Assembly: GCA_001600815.1 (NCBI GenBank)
Contig: BCKZ01000020.1
Coordinates: 212,831 to 276,830 of the forward strand
DNA from: Alloascoidea hylecoeti
Lineage: Eukaryota
Direction: 5' to 3'
DNA: 64,000 nt
Shown: one piece after another, positions 12,635 to 62,108 of the stretch
Position numbering within the stretch: position 1 is the stretch's first letter
How the letters are laid out: each line of letters begins with the position of its first letter
Made by a program: the position numbers and the translations under genes
Notes under the pieces: model-generated
What the model was told of the DNA's origin: nothing
The model's database searches: none
The model's input: the letters and a program-made list of their open reading frames with translations, nothing else

Positions 12635-14341
12635 ATGAATCAGTTAACATTACCAGCATTACCAACAGAACTTCTTCATTCTATCGCAGTGGAATTAAGT
12701 CTACAGGATTTCAATAGTTTATTTCAAACGTCCCAATATTTGAATTATGTTCTGTTTTCAAATCAATTGGAATTGTATTTCAAAAACCTTATCACAGAAG
12801 AATGTCCTTTTTGCGACCCAGATAAGATAGAATTCTGGAAATTGTATGCCTCACAATACTATAAAATAAAACATACACTCAGGTCTATAGAGAAAAATGA
12901 GATTCAGCTGCAGAGTTCAAATCTAGATTCATCCGATCGATATTTGCACCCTAATTTTGGGAATATAATCGGCTTAATGAATATTTACACTTACAAAGAC
13001 AGAAGAACAGAAAACATGAATTGGTGGTCAGAAACTACCTTGTGTAGCAGCGTAAAACCCATGATATATCTATTAGATACAGTAGGTGAAAGGCTTATGG
13101 GCGAAAAGAATCTTCTAAGAAAGCAGGAGGAAGAGGACGGTTCTAAAGGAAAAAACTGGGGCTATTGTATTGCATTTGATAGTAGAGAGTGTGAGGGAAA
13201 GTTATCTGAATTAGCGCTTCGGCCACAAAATTTTATAGACCGCAAGCTATTGCACTTGGATAAAAATAATGTTGCCTGGAAGCGCACACATGATGTGAGT
13301 TGGAATTTCACTATTGATGAACATGAAGACAAAAAAAGCATTACACAAATTCAGTCGGTTTATGAACCTTCTAAGAAATGGAACTTGAATCCCACTATTG
13401 AAATTGGTAGCAACAATTGGCACGAATTCTTTCCAATATGTCAAGAATATGGTGACAAGCTCTATGTTTTCAGATATTGCCCATATAATAGAGCTTCCCT
13501 TATATGCTATAGTAACTATAGGCTTGCTCAAGACACAGATGAAAATATTGGAAATGTTGAATGGGAAACTGAGATGTTCTCATTTCAATTTGATAAATAC
13601 TTTTTATTTTTTGGGTGGTTCCATAAAATGATTATTCATTCCCATTATATTTTTACTCTGTTTCATAACTTTAATGGTGGAAAGCATTCCTATGTTTATG
13701 TTTTTGATAGAATAACAGGTGAACATGTGGGGATGTTTGATGGATTGGAAGCAGGATTTTATATTGAGGATATTTCGGTGACACAAGATAAAATATTTTT
13801 GACTACAACGGTTGGAAAGATAAGAAGGGGAGAAGGCGAACATTCGTCGGGCTCTTTGCAATGGAAACCACTAACTGCATTCATTTCACAGCTTAATTTA
13901 GAATACTATGGGTTATTCATTCCGAAAAAGGGCCCTTCATTTTCTCAAAATAAATCAACTCAAAAATCGATTGACCCTTGTACTGATAACCCAAAGACCA
14001 TCTCTAAATTAACACAAAAATTACTCAAATCAAAAGATGCTTATAGGGATGAATGGCATATACTTCATACTCAACAGTTTACGGAGAAATATCCGCTAAA
14101 TACAATAATAACCGAAGAAACTATGATTATCAACACATGGGATATTCCAACCACAATACCAAAGAATATTAAGGTTTTTAAACCTAGAAATATAACTATA
14201 ATGATTGATTTATTAACAGGGGATAAGAAATACTTTGATCAAGGTACAAACCCAGATGGTACGATCATTTTTGATGATAATATGAATGCGATGTTCTTGA
14301 CTCGGAAATATCTTGAGAATGTTGGCATAGGCTCCCGGTAA
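12635..14341 (+). CDS. F-box protein with an unrecognised, probably beta-rich C-terminal region
   Basis: 568 aa; the N-terminal LPALPTELLHSIAVELSLQDFNSLFQTSQYL fits the F-box consensus. Confidence 0.75.
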   Translation: MNQLTLPALPTELLHSIAVELSLQDFNSLFQTSQYLNYVLFSNQLELYFKNLITEECPFCDPDKIEFWKLYASQYYKIKHTLRSIEKNEIQLQSSNLDSSDRYLHPNFGNIIGLMNIYTYKDRRTENMNWWSETTLCSSVKPMIYLLDTVGERLMGEKNLLRKQEEEDGSKGKNWGYCIAFDSRECEGKLSELALRPQNFIDRKLLHLDKNNVAWKRTHDVSWNFTIDEHEDKKSITQIQSVYEPSKKWNLNPTIEIGSNNWHEFFPICQEYGDKLYVFRYCPYNRASLICYSNYRLAQDTDENIGNVEWETEMFSFQFDKYFLFFGWFHKMIIHSHYIFTLFHNFNGGKHSYVYVFDRITGEHVGMFDGLEAGFYIEDISVTQDKIFLTTTVGKIRRGEGEHSSGSLQWKPLTAFISQLNLEYYGLFIPKKGPSFSQNKSTQKSIDPCTDNPKTISKLTQKLLKSKDAYRDEWHILHTQQFTEKYPLNTIITEETMIINTWDIPTTIPKNIKVFKPRNITIMIDLLTGDKKYFDQGTNPDGTIIFDDNMNAMFLTRKYLENVGIGSR

Positions 14342-16706
14342 CCAAAGTTTAATATTGGTGTGTAATTAAAAATGAAACTTTTATGACTCTCTTACTTAGT
14401 TAAATATACAAGATACATTATATATGCTTAATTATGAAATGATGAAAATATAATTATGATGGATAAACATAGATCGTAAGTTTTTTCACCAATTGCTAGC
14501 TATATTTCCAAAATATAGTAGCGAAAATATTTGGAATTAATTAACGATTTTATTTTTAAGTATGGTAGGGGACAGTTAAAACTTAAAATGAAGAACATTT
14601 TTCTGTGTGAAATTTTGGACACCATAAAATATGCATGCAGTTGTACTAATTAAGATATATAGAAATATTTCAGCATACATATGCATTCACTTATCTAGAT
14701 GAAGTGCGCGTAATTGTGTGCAAATGTGACCTAATTCTTAACTAACCGGTTCGAAATCTGGAAGCCTACATAGTTAAGAAATATGGTAAAATAATTTGAC
14801 AGAGAAAATTAATTTGAAACAAGAAGATTTAGATTTGCCATTCATCAACCATCTGTCGTCTTTAATATATAATGGAAGTGATTTTGAAAATTTAAGTGAA
14901 CTCTAGCATCACACAAAACACATAAAATTAGATTATGTAAGATACTAAGATTGTATAACAAGTTGAAAACCTGTGTTTTGTGCCTGTGATTGTTATGATA
15001 TCGATGGTGGCATTTCAGCTATCATATTGGTCACATTTGATCATATAGAGCCATCGCACTACTTGGCGTTCTCTTTATATTCTCTCAGGGGGCCTATCAG
15101 CTTTGGTAGAATAAAAAAATCGCACTATTCATATCCATACCGCTATACTGTTATATAATCATATCCCCTCTATATCTTGTGATTAACATGAGGTACCAAT
15201 GAAAATAATTTCCAGATGGAGGCCATAAATTAATAGATGCTTTTTCCTAGGCTCAAAGAATTAGTTGGTATATCTATAAAGCACAAAAATTAGAATTACT
15301 GAGGAGACTCTGGTGGCGGATTAATTACAAAACCATACACAATCACTAGCTAATTTAGTTTAAAATATGGCCCATTATTTAGCCTGCATAGTGGCCTAAA
15401 TTAAGTGGATTTACTGCTAGTTTTTGATTTGGTGCCCGCGTTAACAATGATTTAGCAGAAGCGTCTAGAGTTGATTAGCGATCTAAACTGGGCAAAATAT
15501 CTGTAATTCAATTAGATCGCTGATTCTTCATGCTAGTCTCGATCCACTGAATAATTGTGGATGAAAGTAAAAAACTTCCGAGTCTCAGAATACTGGATAA
15601 ACCTAATTAATTCAAAAACCTTTCGGTTTCTTTCGAAAATATAACTATCGATATAACTATTGGTGAATGATCTTCTACCGCTAGCTTCTGAGTCAAGTCT
15701 AAAGTCGCGCCTTTTAAAGGCACCACTACAAAAAAATATCAATTTTATAACGTGTTTAACGTTAACTATAGCTAGTACTGAGTACTCTATTCTTAGTGCG
15801 AAAATTTTAGAAATTCTATTATGCTGTATAAAATGAGATTTTAAGTTTAGTGTTTAGTAGTGTAATAAACGGCTGCAGCTCTATGAAATTCTCCACCCAA
15901 ACACACTATATATATGTACGTATAAGCCTTATAGTGAAGTACCGCCTTTCGAAATTGCAGCCCATATCATGAGACTTACAAATCTAAACATCCAAGTTTA
16001 AGGTGAAGTATTATAAATTCTTTGAGGATCAAGTGCCTGGCCTGGCTCTAGTCGAGCATATACTTTTCTGAATTCGGATTCTGTAGCGCCTAAGCATTCG
16101 TCACTTAATACAACAACCTCAAACGTCCTGAGGTCACTCAGATCTGTCTTTGTGACATATCTTTCTGTGCCTTTGGATTTTCTCATTCAGAACAGGCCTT
16201 TTACGTGGTGAAAATGTTCGATATGCATGAATGTTCTTAAGGAGATATTTTGAGTTGCTTCCGAAAAAAAGTGCAACTTAGACTTCACTTTAGGGTATAG
16301 CTAGCGCTAGCTAAGATACACATTCATCCCTACAGTTGCAAGTTATGATTCAAAGGTTAAAAATAGATGATTTTACGAGTATAACTTAAGATGCTTTTCA
16401 ATTTGACTCCAATGAGTTATAACAGTACGATACTGCGCCCTATCAAAATCACAAGAGATATAGATATGGTAAGGTCTCAATGGAATTGAATAAATAAATA
16501 CAAACTGTAAAGTGAAACAAAACACTGGTAAAAAAACCGTTACTACTACGGTATTTTGAATCAATGTTGATGTTTTGTGCTTGAAACTTTATTTTTAACC
16601 TGAACACCACATTTAATTTGATAATCGATCGAGGTTCTTTTATTAACCTTAATACTAGAAAACATGGTTTATACCCGCCAGAGACAATGAAGCAAATATT
16701 CTATAA

Positions 16707-57275: not shown

Positions 57276-59671
57276 GGTATTGATATTGAGTGTAGAATGC
57301 TATAAATTGAACCTGTAAAGGAGGAAGTTCCCAATGTTTTATACTCCATTTCTCGAGATATATGGTAATTAATATTATTTGAATAAACTAAAAGAAGTTC
57401 AAATTAATGTGGGGATAGCTTTTGGTGATAGCGCACAACAATATTTGTTTAATATAAATTTAGATATTTCTTATTAAATAGTATGGATTTTAGATCATTT
57501 GTTGCTTCCCAGATGCCCATAAATTTTTGATTTTTATATGCACTGATCAGGATTAATATGATGAACGAAATAAAATAAAAATATTTCACGGTTAATACGG
57601 TTATAGCTTATAGGTCTTTACAGTTTCTTTAGACTATATCAATCCCGCAGAAAGGAAGTCCTCTTCATTCAGCAAGCCGATCCCTAAGAATTCAGATTAA
57701 GCTACTTGATTCGCTAAATTTTTGATTCAGACAAGGTGTTGAAATGCATCATGTTAAACAACTCTATAAAGATAGAAAGAAACCTACATGTTTAAGACAA
57801 TTGACGGCCTAGCTAATTATTTACTTTACTACTTAGAGAGCTATCTGCAGTGAAAGTTGCTCATACGGTTCGCTTAACTTCTCTATTCATTGTCAGTTGA
57901 CACCTCCTCAATCATGGTGCATAATCGATCCTACCTCCTCATTAGTTTTATTATTAATATCAAAATTCCAAGAAAGTGGAGCAGGGACAGGCCGAGATTA
58001 ACCAACCATTAAATTATTGAAAATTTGGAGTGTAAGTATATTAATACTCCATTTAGGCTTCTGTTCTTTCGATCAAATAATAAACACCGCGAGTATAAAA
58101 GTTTCTCCGGCTGCCGTTAGTTTATAGATGGTTATTAGAGTTAAAATGAGGTTTACAATTGTGAAGTATACATGATAATTATGAGCCTTTCAGGCAAAAA
58201 TGATAATAGCTTCGTAATTGCAATTATTTTTTGGTGTTATTGAATATTGTATCAACTATTTCTTCTTATGCACAGATGAGGCTCGAACGGAGGTTAACAT
58301 TGCTTCTTCGCACTACCAACTAAATTTCAAAATGTCATCATGTTAATAGAATTAAATATATTTTGTAAGGTTTATAGAGAGAAACCAAGTTGGAGTTTTT
58401 ATTAGAGGGGAAATATGGACCTATACACAAACGAATAACTATGCATATGCATATGTAAGAAAAGGACTACTATAAGCAGTTTGGGGTTATGCATGTGTAC
58501 GGCTGGATCACATAGGCACCGGATAACAATAATGCTATAAAAAGGTATTGAAGACGATTCGAAATCTTAAAGTCACTTTTGATCTGAAGGTGAAAAATGA
58601 AAAAATGAAGTGAAAGAAGATGATTAATTATTAAGCCGGGATGTGTATATTTTATTAAGTAACGATCGGGGAAAACTCTAATTTATGTACATCTTTCCCT
58701 GACACCCCTCCAAAAAAAAAGATTTTTTAAATAATACAGTAGAATGGCTTTTAGAATTTCGTTGAGTGAAATCTCACGTAATTCTAAATTTTCAAAAAGT
58801 ATTTGGAACTAGCTAAGCCAGTTAAAATTCGCTATATGACTGAGAACAGTTTCTCAATGCGAAAATAACCAAGCTTAATAATGCACCTTTTTAATTACAT
58901 GGTTCGTACCGTGAATAAAAATAGCAACAACTCCTCTGGTGTAACCTTCTCGAAAAATAAAGCCGGCAGAAATTTCTGGGTAGCATTGAAACAAAGTCTG
59001 GGGGCTGTGAAAACCTCCATATTGAATACTTTTGAGGAGCAGACTTCAAAATTCAACATTGGAATATTAATATCGATATCAAAGACGGCCTAAGAAGTTA
59101 GTAAGAACCCCTCTGTAAAACCATAAATATGGAATATTTTCGGCATGCAAATGATCTGATATAAATGAGAAGAACGAAATGAATTAATTATATTGTCTAA
59201 GGTTGGAGTGGTCTTATCACATTTTGGATGGTGTCGTATTTAGTGACGAATGTTAAGTCGTTACAGGATAGTCACACCAAAATTATAGCTATAGTATAGA
59301 GAAGCACGAGCTCGAATCTATGATTCTTATAGTACGGGCAAAAATTTGGAAAAGATGCCGTGTTTCACTGTATATAGGGTGGTTGAGGCTCCTAATAGCA
59401 GAAAAAAGGAGTTCCTACATAGAACTTTTGTAAGATATATATATTTGATTAGATATTGATGAGGGGCAGCCGTCTATGGCGTTAAGGGGGCCAACTTTAA
59501 AGATTCGGTTCAAATTTTCATTTTAGGTAAACTACAGTACTTTAATCTCTAGTATCTACGAAACATTATGAACTACTTTAAAAACAGTTTGAGGCACCGT
59601 AGAGTATTTAGTGACTGGTCATAATATTCTTTTTGGAGGTGGTCTAGAAAAGGATATGGGTAAATTAGAGA

Positions 59672-60510
59672 TTTTTATTTTTTACCTTTCATATATTTTC
59701 AATTAAATTATATATATAATAAAAACCTCTTTATCCATTTTTCTTATTATTTTTGTATATTTTTGACATATATCATTCTTCTCTTTTTATGTTTCTTTAC
59801 CTAGACCACCTTAAAAGTAAATATATTTTAATTTTTTTTATTTTTATTATTATTTTTTTTTTTTTTAACTTTTCATATATTTTCCAATTAAATTATATAA
59901 CTAGAAACTATGTAAATTCTGAGGAAATCTCTACTATATATAGTGAAATAAAAACCTCTCTTTCTATTCTTCTTATTTTTGTGTATTCTTGACACTCTTC
60001 TTTCTTCCCTTCTTATGTAGCTAGACCACCTATAAAGTAAAATTTTTTTTTCTTTTTTTTTAGATATATTTGGTTGAGCAATCTTCAAATAGATGCAATA
60101 TGTCGTCTTTACCTTGTTGACATACACTACAAATATCAATTTTTTTCCACCATTGTTTTGCTTTTTTGTTTGGATGTAGCATATGAGTAACGTATCCCAA
60201 GCTGAGCAAATGTATCTATTGTGTCTCCTCAGGGTGTTCCTTATATGTTTCTTTGATAAATCCCCACCATTTCTTCCAATTTTCATTTTTTAGTTCCGGA
60301 ATTAACTGCATCCATTTGTTTGGTTTCAATATAATTTTGTTTTTATTGTACCACTTTTGGCTTATTGATTTAATCGAGTATTTGGATATGTTTTCTTCTT
60401 CCATGTTTTTTATTCTTTTTCGATATCTTCTCCTGCTGGGTTTTCCACCAGTTTTTGTAACGCTTCATTTGTCAATTTTGGTACCCTTACAGTAGTTTTT
60501 CGCTGACTGC
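59672..60510 (-). mobile_element. Decayed, 5'-truncated L1/Tx1-type non-LTR retrotransposon relic (ORF2 C-terminus plus repeated A-tailed modules)
   Basis: One frame 60404-60060 reads ...NWKKWWGFIK..ETQ*IHLLSLGY..WWKKIDICSVCQQGKDDILHLFEDCSTKYI*, containing a CX2CX8HX4C finger and one premature stop. It is followed by an A-tract and two related modules that each end in an A-rich tail. Boundaries are approximate. Confidence 0.7.
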
Positions 60511-60564
60511 ACAAAATACATGGTGTTCTTCATCACGTGAATCATTTTCCTCCGTTATATGTTC

Positions 60565-60636
60565 GGCCGTGTGGTCTAGTGGTATGATACTCGCTTTGGG
60601 TGCGAGTGGCCCTGGGTTCAATTCCCAGCTCGGCCC
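60565..60636 (+). tRNA. tRNA-Pro(TGG), intronless
   Basis: 72-nt cloverleaf GGCCGTGTGGTCTAGTGG...CTCGC TT TGG GT GCGAG...GGTTCAATTCCC..CGGCCC followed by an oligo-T terminator. Confidence 0.97.
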
Positions 60637-61120
60637 GATTCTTTTTTTAACCTTGAAAAGGTTTCTCCCACCATAATTTAGCCAAACGGCGCTTAGCTGT
60701 AAGATGACTTGCTTCAGACTGCCATAAATGTATGAGTCTGTCTGACTGTAACGTAATTTTTTCTTTCTTTCTTTCTAGGTTTCAACTTTTTTCATCACTA
60801 CCAGTAGCCGTCTTCTTCTTAAGGGACCACCCAATAATATCGTGGGACTATAAAACAAATAGTGGTTAATATGATTGCTACTTGCGCCCATAAAACTAAT
60901 TAACCCCAGCCACAGGCATTCCTTGGTTCTATTATATAATACATGTACATAATTACATAATCTAATTTTATTTGTTTCGTCTTTAAAAAAAAAGTTTCGG
61001 CTTCGGATCGATGCAAAAGGTCCAACTGTGCCACGGGGGGCCCTGATTGGTTGGTTTGTGAGACATAAATAATAATTTTTTTTCAAGCCATTAAGGCTCT
61101 ATAATAAAAACAAAAAACTA

Positions 61121-61194
61121 TGGTCTCTAGCAGGATCGAACTGCTGATCCCCGCGTTATTAGCACGGTGCCTTAACCAACTGGGCCAAGAGACC
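61121..61194 (-). tRNA. tRNA-Ile(AAT)
   Basis: Reverse complement is GGTCTCTTGGCCCAGTTGGTTAAGGCACCGTGCTAATAACGCGGGGATCAGCAGTTCGATCCTGCTAGAGACCA (74 nt), followed by a T-run. Confidence 0.97.
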
Positions 61195-62108
61195 TATCCA
61201 TATGAGAGTTTTTGAACCCCATTATGATGTGGTAACATGCATTGAGTTTGAGCCTGACATGTAAGGTTAAAAATATACCTGGTAGTACTTAAAGAAATCA
61301 GAAAATAATTAGAAATGAATAAGTTCTGATAGAATGGCGTGAAATATAGAAATAAGAATAGAGATTCATAATATTGGAATTGTACATAGACAATTATTTG
61401 ATAAACCGTACGCTTTATATCTTATGCTCTTCCTTAATTCCAAAGCCTTTTCTATGTTTTGAAATAAAGAATAGAAGGGCCAATTTATAGAAAGTGCATT
61501 GGAATTATTGAATATCATAAGATATAGCTATATAATACAAAATTAAAATAAAAATTAGAAGTAATTGCGGTTTTCACACTATGAGTAAAAAAACCAAAGA
61601 TTATTGTCTTTTCAATTATTCTTTTCTTCTATAATCTACAGTGGATATGGTTCCTTAATTAAGCGTATACCTTATATTTTCTTACAAGATTATCACTAGA
61701 ATTGTTAATTATAAACACAATCCTTCAATATAATCCAGCTGAACACTACTAGTAACTTATATTTCAGTCAAAGGCGTAACCAATAGATGAAGTTTAAGTC
61801 ATTATGTTTCTGGAAAAGATTCGCAATCTAATCTTTTTGTTATTGAACGTGGTCGCTCTCCAAATCAACTAGCTATCGCTTCCCAATTGACTGCAAGCGC
61901 TAATCAATAGCACAATATAAACTAAAGTACCTTACTAATACTATTATGCTCTTGTCAGTTATCGCTAGGTTACAGCACTGGTGTTTTAACATGGAATTGA
62001 AATCAAATATAAAATACAATAGAAATTAATTACATATATAGTCTATAAACTTATATAAGTAGCATTAAAAATACATTAGTTAAAGTAAAGTAGAATAAGG
62101 TACATCAA

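Follow-up and report, generated by a model that had tools for sequence, protein, structure and literature searches.

For mobile elements in compact genomes, settling beside tRNA genes is the textbook 'safe haven' strategy. LTR elements with an integrase are, to our knowledge, the only ones that do so in yeasts: Ty3 inserts at the transcription start, and Ty1 over a span of up to ~1 kb. For the non-LTR element TRE5-A, the ORF1 protein binds TFIIIB.

TRE5-A of Dictyostelium discoideum integrates ~40-54 bp upstream of the mature tRNA coding sequence and in the opposite orientation (PMC5911963, PMC5006619). Its ORF2 encodes an endonuclease, a reverse transcriptase (RT) and a zinc finger, many of its copies are 5'-truncated, and it ends in an oligo(A) tail (PMC5911963, PMC5006619). 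NLTR-B of Polysphondylium pallidum, a non-LTR element unrelated to the TREs, is found 39-64 bp upstream of tRNA genes, and the LTR elements Ty3 and Ty1 of Saccharomyces cerevisiae integrate upstream of Pol III genes (PMC5911963). Among tRNA-targeting non-LTR elements, the table of a 2018 review has dictyostelid families only, and in the same review the target specificity of fungal LINEs is described as not yet worked out (PMC5911963). Zorro3 (L1 superfamily) of Candida albicans has an ORF2 and poly(A), targets poly(A) tracts and carries poly(A) on both flanks, with no known regional preference in the accessible part of its description (PMC7175516). Ylli (L1 family) of Yarrowia lipolytica occurs as many 5'-truncated fragments with poly(A) tracts and, according to the portion of the source available, without recognisable target-site duplications (PMC5014426). 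Full-text searches, which covered the literature outside subscription-only papers and supplements, found no yeast or fungal LINE with tRNA-gene targeting.

The locus described here belongs to a 64-kb window, that is, the whole stretch of DNA that was analysed. It holds a LINE relic that lies head to head with a tRNA-Pro(UGG) gene, 67 nt from the 5' end of the tRNA. TRE5-like targeting upstream of tRNA genes is the likely explanation of this arrangement.

Layout and identity of the relic

The features of the locus, in window coordinates, are the following.

60565..60636, plus strand: tRNA-Pro(UGG), 72 nt, followed by a T7 run (ARAGORN; Rfam RF00005, 59 bits)
60498..60564, no strand: spacer of 67 nt from the tRNA 5' end to the 5' junction of the relic (loose end at 60497)
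60410..60497, minus strand: ORF2 piece in frame A, TTVRVPKLTNEALQKLVENPAGEDIEKE followed by a stop; the copy is 5'-truncated here (reading frames; P0014 joins it with the next piece)
60216..60409, minus strand: ORF2 piece in frame B, MEEENISKYS...KEHPEETQ, after the frameshift and with the in-frame TAG at 60218-60216 (tblastn of P0001, P0002 and P0003; aligns to P0009 from residue 952 onward)
60060..60215, minus strand: ORF2 piece that includes the CCHC finger (60131-60078) and stops early at a TAA, 60062-60060 (reading frames; zf-RVT matches in family members)
60043..60061, minus strand: internal A-run of 19 nt including one G (sequence; intact relatives have ..ILKK.. here)
59876..60042, minus strand: unit 1, putative 3'-terminal segment of 167 nt and the most abundant part of the family (contig depth)
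59816..59875, minus strand: A-rich tail of the proximal element, 60 nt (sequence)
59684..59815, minus strand: unit 2, a second, more diverged and distal 3' segment (75% identity to unit 1; depth)
59672..59683, minus strand: short A-rich tail of unit 2 (sequence)
61121..61194, minus strand: tRNA-Ile(AAU), context (ARAGORN; Rfam, 56.4 bits)

The tRNA-Ile(AAU) gene was missed by Rfam at the gathering threshold with fast filters and scored 56.4 bits in a permissive run; the miss is a filter effect, and the gene is not doubtful. Within the window, blastn found no relic in front of this gene. A 40-nt inverted repeat (61416-61526, 83% complementary, 31-nt loop) lies ~220-330 nt upstream of it. Two motifs occur in the spacer at 60498-60564: CACGTGA ~35 nt and TTATATG ~9-15 nt ahead of the tRNA. 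Beyond the relic, 57276-59670 forms ~2.4 kb of gene-free DNA, part of 3.3 kb without a long ORF in front of tRNA-Pro. Low-copy repeats (~2-10 copies each) with sharp ends at 59022, 59067, 59102, 59269 and 59590 occupy 59000-59670, and the low-copy repeats in 57276-59670 are probably relics of other mobile elements. The stretch also occurs in a wood-decay metagenome.

On the minus strand, the frame 60464..60216, which after the frameshift reads MEEENISKYSIKSISQKWYNKNKIILKPNKWMQLIPELKNENWKKWWGFIKETYKEHPEETQ, closes at the TAG 60218-60216. The next frame, 60215..60060, reads IHLLSLGYVTHMLHPNKKAKQWWKKIDICSVCQQGKDDILHLFEDCSTKYI and includes the Cys/His motif CX2CX8HX4C at 60131-60078, and an upstream piece, VRVPKLTNEALQKLVENPAGEDIEKE, lies in a separate frame (60529..60410). 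The original prediction had read through this TAG into the finger and had assigned the frameshifted upstream piece to the same ORF. Stop and finger are both present in the minus-strand frames, and P0014, a fragment of another copy, carries the two pieces in a single frame (..TNEALQKLVETPAGEDIEKRIKDMEEENIFKYSIKS..); the frameshift interpretation of the window relic is therefore right. Where the window has the A-run, the fragments P0004, P0005 and P0012 continue with ILKKMMLGRERIG... In 60497..60060 (minus strand), a LINE ORF2 survives as a decayed C-terminal fragment with one frameshift and one in-frame TAG.

Taken on its own, the window peptide matches zf-RVT with an E of 1.5, below Pfam significance, as would suit a chance Trp/Lys-rich frame that happens to contain a Cys/His pattern and has no connection to a mobile element. 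The family to which the peptide belongs refutes this reading. An HMMER (phmmer) search of 1.84 billion representatives gave nine matches, comprising eight short ORF fragments (43-89% identity) and one long LINE ORF2, P0009 (1140 aa, E 5e-5, 24% identical to the window family). Further searches raised the number of fragments to 17 (43-90% identity), all from NCBI contigs and none long, and the relic is multi-copy in three sequencing runs. A profile built from 15 family members aligns collinearly with residues 950-1115 of P0009, in the C-terminus of the LINE ORF2 (157 columns; hhalign 93%, E 2.8e-7); the aligned stretch spans PEL..W..W, LGY, the finger and the tail GAFIKKALELRKNIRF. Three of the 15 family members match zf-RVT in Pfam (best E 3.5e-4), and a language-model look-up of P0012 placed 8 of 30 neighbours in the zf-RVT set (score 0.96).

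P0009 itself has Exo_endo_phos (E 6.9e-5, just under the Pfam cut-off), RVT_1 and zf-RVT domains, and its best solved relative is human LINE-1 ORF2p, with an E of 7e-46 vs 3e-18 for R2. By these matches, the relic is identified as the C-terminus of a predicted endonuclease-type LINE ORF2 with a zf-RVT-type finger, in agreement with what had been proposed from the motif. The proposed membership in the L1/Tx1 clade is retained in part, as a putative L1-like affinity that comes solely through the distant relative P0009 and its resemblance to human L1 ORF2p.

No family copy carrying an RT, an endonuclease or an ORF1 was found among the 17 fragments and in library-wide searches, and the window copy is truncated at 60497. 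A word-indexed search among longer proteins yielded 224 candidates, none of which scored for a full-length ORF2. Searching the PDB with the family profile returned no matches at E up to 10, and an AlphaFold2 model of P0012 (16 sequences) had a mean pLDDT of 51, too poor for fold comparison. P0009, P0010 and P0011, from Logan assemblies (contigs of 4.2-5.3 kb), are three near-identical, intact L1-like ORF2 proteins of 1140 aa; a LINE still active in a different organism may be their source.

Copy number, truncation and 3' segments

Contigs of four runs were mapped onto 59000-61500 at 80% likeness and their depths were summed. In run X1, the ORF2 piece at 60092-60511 reached a summed depth of 1270-1580 vs 45.6 in single-copy bins, with the same ratios in X2 and X3, which suggests about 20-35 copies in the same organism. 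For the 3' segment at 59840-60007, the depth was 13200-15400 in X1 (but 7772 at position 59960), with similar ratios in X2 and X3, suggesting a few hundred copies in the same organism. Unit 1 (59875-60031, ~160 nt), with a depth of 13000-15400 in X1, has ~10x the depth of the adjoining ORF2 piece, and its copies are very alike. The near-identity of this abundant 3' unit suggests a fairly recent amplification. Every copy recovered is either broken or short, and the family may therefore be extinct.

Five contigs in each of X1, X2 and X3 match the window up to 60497 and then share a continuation that the window does not have (agreement 0.91). The 5' truncation of the window copy thus falls at 60497 and leaves 67 nt up to the 5' end of the tRNA. 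The relic had been predicted to lie ~60 bp from this end and to point away from it; the orientation stands, and the gap becomes 67 nt, since the likeness between copies stops at 60497. The 5' end varies among copies, falling at 60497, at 60466 and, in P0008, at about the position of WQKSDIC. Elsewhere in the 64-kb window, tblastn and blastn found no further family copies. A pattern search of metagenome contigs for other copies returned 97 pattern stretches, none of which was confirmed, and a 20-nt exact pattern from unit 1 hit two loci in these contigs, both in unrelated bacterial-looking DNA without tRNAs.

Unit 2 shares 75% identity with unit 1, of which ~35 nt are missing; its depth of ~290-410 in X1 corresponds to ~5-9x single-copy. 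The proximal element is nearer to the family consensus than the distal unit 2, and unit 1 is close to the abundant form. Unit 2 looks like an older insertion than unit 1.

Unit 1 occupies the position at which relatives have ~45-65 further codons, and an A-tail closes it. Its alignment with the family ORF2 tail is collinear (..NRKRGFYF.. / ..IEKWGFYQ..) and not significant (tblastn best E 0.26, 501-nt subject), and a tblastn search of 59600-60100 with that tail gave no significant match beyond ..EDCST... Unit 1 is probably a decayed ORF2 tail plus 3' UTR, which would make it the LINE's own 3' end.

Both units bear the 10-mer GGTGGTCTAG at their 5' edge, in minus sense at 60021-60030 and 59801-59810; the same 10-mer recurs inverted (plus strand) at 59637-59646. 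It has 9 nt in common with the A-box region of tRNA-Pro (60571-60579), and the ~25 nt around it in the units have no counterpart in the family ORF2 tail. The resemblance to tRNA-Pro may be due to chance or to a tRNA-related head. The 10-mer raised the possibility that unit 1 is a tRNA-derived SINE, which is rejected for now: Rfam at E up to 1 showed no tRNA-like structure, and there is no B box. An identity of the units as solo LTRs is ruled out by the A-tails, the tandem head-to-tail order and the placement immediately after the end of ORF2. Elsewhere in the run contigs, units are joined to one another in tandem, with a period of ~200 nt.

tRNA genes beside other copies and the choice of site

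Among the 17 fragments, only P0008 includes an upstream flank, which reads ..GASPPGVEPGIFRCDHLIVGERLAIGPRG... Back-translation and reverse complementation of its PPGVEPG forces CCNGG-YTCNACN-CCNGG, and the resulting antisense T-arm has a 5-pair T-stem (4 pairs forced), G53, T55, C56, A58, C61 and a TTC.A loop. This signature was present in 7 of 20000 random 95-aa peptides and in none of the 106093 residues of the window's six frames, by a criterion so strict and of such low sensitivity that the window's own two tRNAs were not picked up. Fitting a full cloverleaf to P0008 gave 33/34, a score compatible with a tRNA, yet matched by 5 of 60 shuffles and not significant; the best model has 83 nt with an intron of 9-12 nt and no assignable anticodon. 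A class-I-only model gave 25/28, inside the shuffle range. The implied tRNA is antisense to the LINE, with its 5' end turned towards that of the LINE part and 58-70 nt before it. This part starts with ..WQKSDIC.., ~350 nt deeper into the element than the window copy, and the T-loop is of the TTCGACT type, unlike that of the window tRNA-Pro; P0008 therefore represents an insertion independent of the window copy.

A further copy emerged from a contig joint in X1 and X2 that connects 60466 with 61199 on opposite strands, so that a copy whose 5' truncation lies at 60466 stands head to head with a tRNA-Ile-like 5' end. Since 61199 precedes the 5' end of tRNA-Ile by 5 nt, the distance at the joint amounts to these 5 nt and whatever letters separate the two sides. 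The distances to the tRNA may accordingly not be tightly clustered. This joint analysis was of a kind that could reveal only joints to Pro-like or Ile-like genes. All 3 of the inspectable copies, out of ~20-35 and including a window copy chosen for its tRNA, show the same orientation, opposite to the tRNA gene, at three tRNAs and with three truncation points. For the predicted tRNA-targeting family, the P0008 T-arm and the Ile-like joint add limited support, extending to 3 of ~20-35 copies.

From this evidence, 60497..59816 is a dead, 5'-truncated copy of an L1-like LINE of the predicted apurinic-endonuclease type, probably inserted by target-primed reverse transcription at a site chosen via the Pol III gene or its complex. 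Target-primed reverse transcription would have placed the copy 67 nt upstream of tRNA-Pro(UGG), with the LINE 5' end facing the tRNA 5' end. Two successive insertions may have occurred at a similar distance from the tRNA, with the older one (59815..59672) displaced by the newer. Sequence alone would not have determined the site; the cue would be the Pol III gene or the transcription complex on it, as in Dictyostelium TRE5. A consensus-like element next to the tRNA with a diverged fragment behind it fits repeated hits at one target, and the position of the newer element on the tRNA side does not fit insertion into the tail of the older one.

Some features of the locus would also be produced by an ordinary L1-like LINE that does not recognise Pol III genes but prefers A/T-rich or poly(A) tracts, and whose copies survive in the AT-rich, gene-free and tolerant regions upstream of tRNA genes. 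There is precedent for such a preference in Zorro3, which integrates into poly(A) tracts (PMC7175516), and in Ylli, which nicks AT-rich DNA and, in the available description, leaves no recognisable target-site duplications (PMC5014426). The window order of A-run, unit, A-tail, unit and A-tail agrees with this account, as do the 3.3 kb before the tRNA, devoid of a long ORF and holding other low-copy repeats. The window likewise has no target-site duplication of at least 7 nt when the 5' flank is compared with the DNA beyond each tail, which in an old and stacked copy is weak evidence. Against Pol III-gene targeting, 3' units are joined to A-rich sites in LINE copies (59808->60416, 60006->60408) or to one another in tandem, and such joints fit A-tract targeting or array formation. 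At the 5' junctions, however, the poly(A) that marks both flanks of Zorro3 is missing: the window reads ..GCGAAA before 60497, and the P0008 flank (..LITITIHI) is not Lys/Asn-rich. In addition, of the two elements the newer is the one closer to the tRNA and lies outside the tail of the older, and three independent copies within ~70 nt of three tRNAs, all head to head, are very unlikely to result from base composition alone. A preference for A-tracts without Pol III recognition is thus an unlikely, if serious, account of the locus.

The association with tRNA genes could also be secondary, if LINE pieces entered a repeat cluster built by a tRNA-targeting LTR element or another repeat, or arrived by recombination or segmental duplication. 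The sharp-ended repeats in 59000-59670 are of the kind such a history would leave, and repeat clusters are typical in front of yeast tRNA genes (PMC5911963). In the window, however, the LINE is the element nearest to the tRNA, with a 67-nt spacer free of other repeats, and the different truncation points and tRNAs of the three copies imply that they are not duplicates of one block. A secondary arrival is accordingly quite improbable.

Targeting of Pol III genes, the reading that we prefer, leads to a broader proposal whose chances we consider about even: that an L1-like LINE of a budding yeast independently evolved TRE5-like integration, ~60-70 bp upstream of tRNA genes and head to head with them, as the first such fungal element, and that its 3'-terminal 160 nt were later amplified to a few hundred copies. 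If true, this would be a further independent origin of the tRNA-gene safe-haven strategy, achieved by target-primed reverse transcription in a yeast LINE, and organisms with tractable Pol III factors and LINE assays would allow its study; Zorro3, for one, is already functional in S. cerevisiae (PMC7175516). If the association is incidental, the relic is merely one more dead LINE fragment.

Comparison with known systems

Among LINEs of budding yeasts, the window family resembles Zorro3 as a putative L1-type element. By description, the two differ in their surroundings, as the 5' flank of the window copy has only AAA and the copies described here adjoin tRNA genes. Ylli differs in that full-length copies exist, whereas none was found for the window family, and the available part of its description mentions no association with tRNA genes (PMC5014426). 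Ty3 and Ty1 are further removed, being LTR elements with an integrase that integrate at other distances.

The dictyostelid elements offer closer parallels. The distance range of NLTR-B overlaps that observed here, and this element sets a precedent for independent origins of integration upstream of tRNA genes; however, it has an RNase H domain in the place of the zinc finger (PMC5911963), whereas the window family has a CCHC finger. TRE5-A differs in its host, an amoeba as opposed to a presumed yeast, and in its distance, which is somewhat smaller than that of the family described here. In arrangement, the likeness to TRE5-A lies in the orientation opposite to the tRNA gene and in a gap upstream of it, which here measures 67 nt for the window copy and 58-70 nt for P0008.
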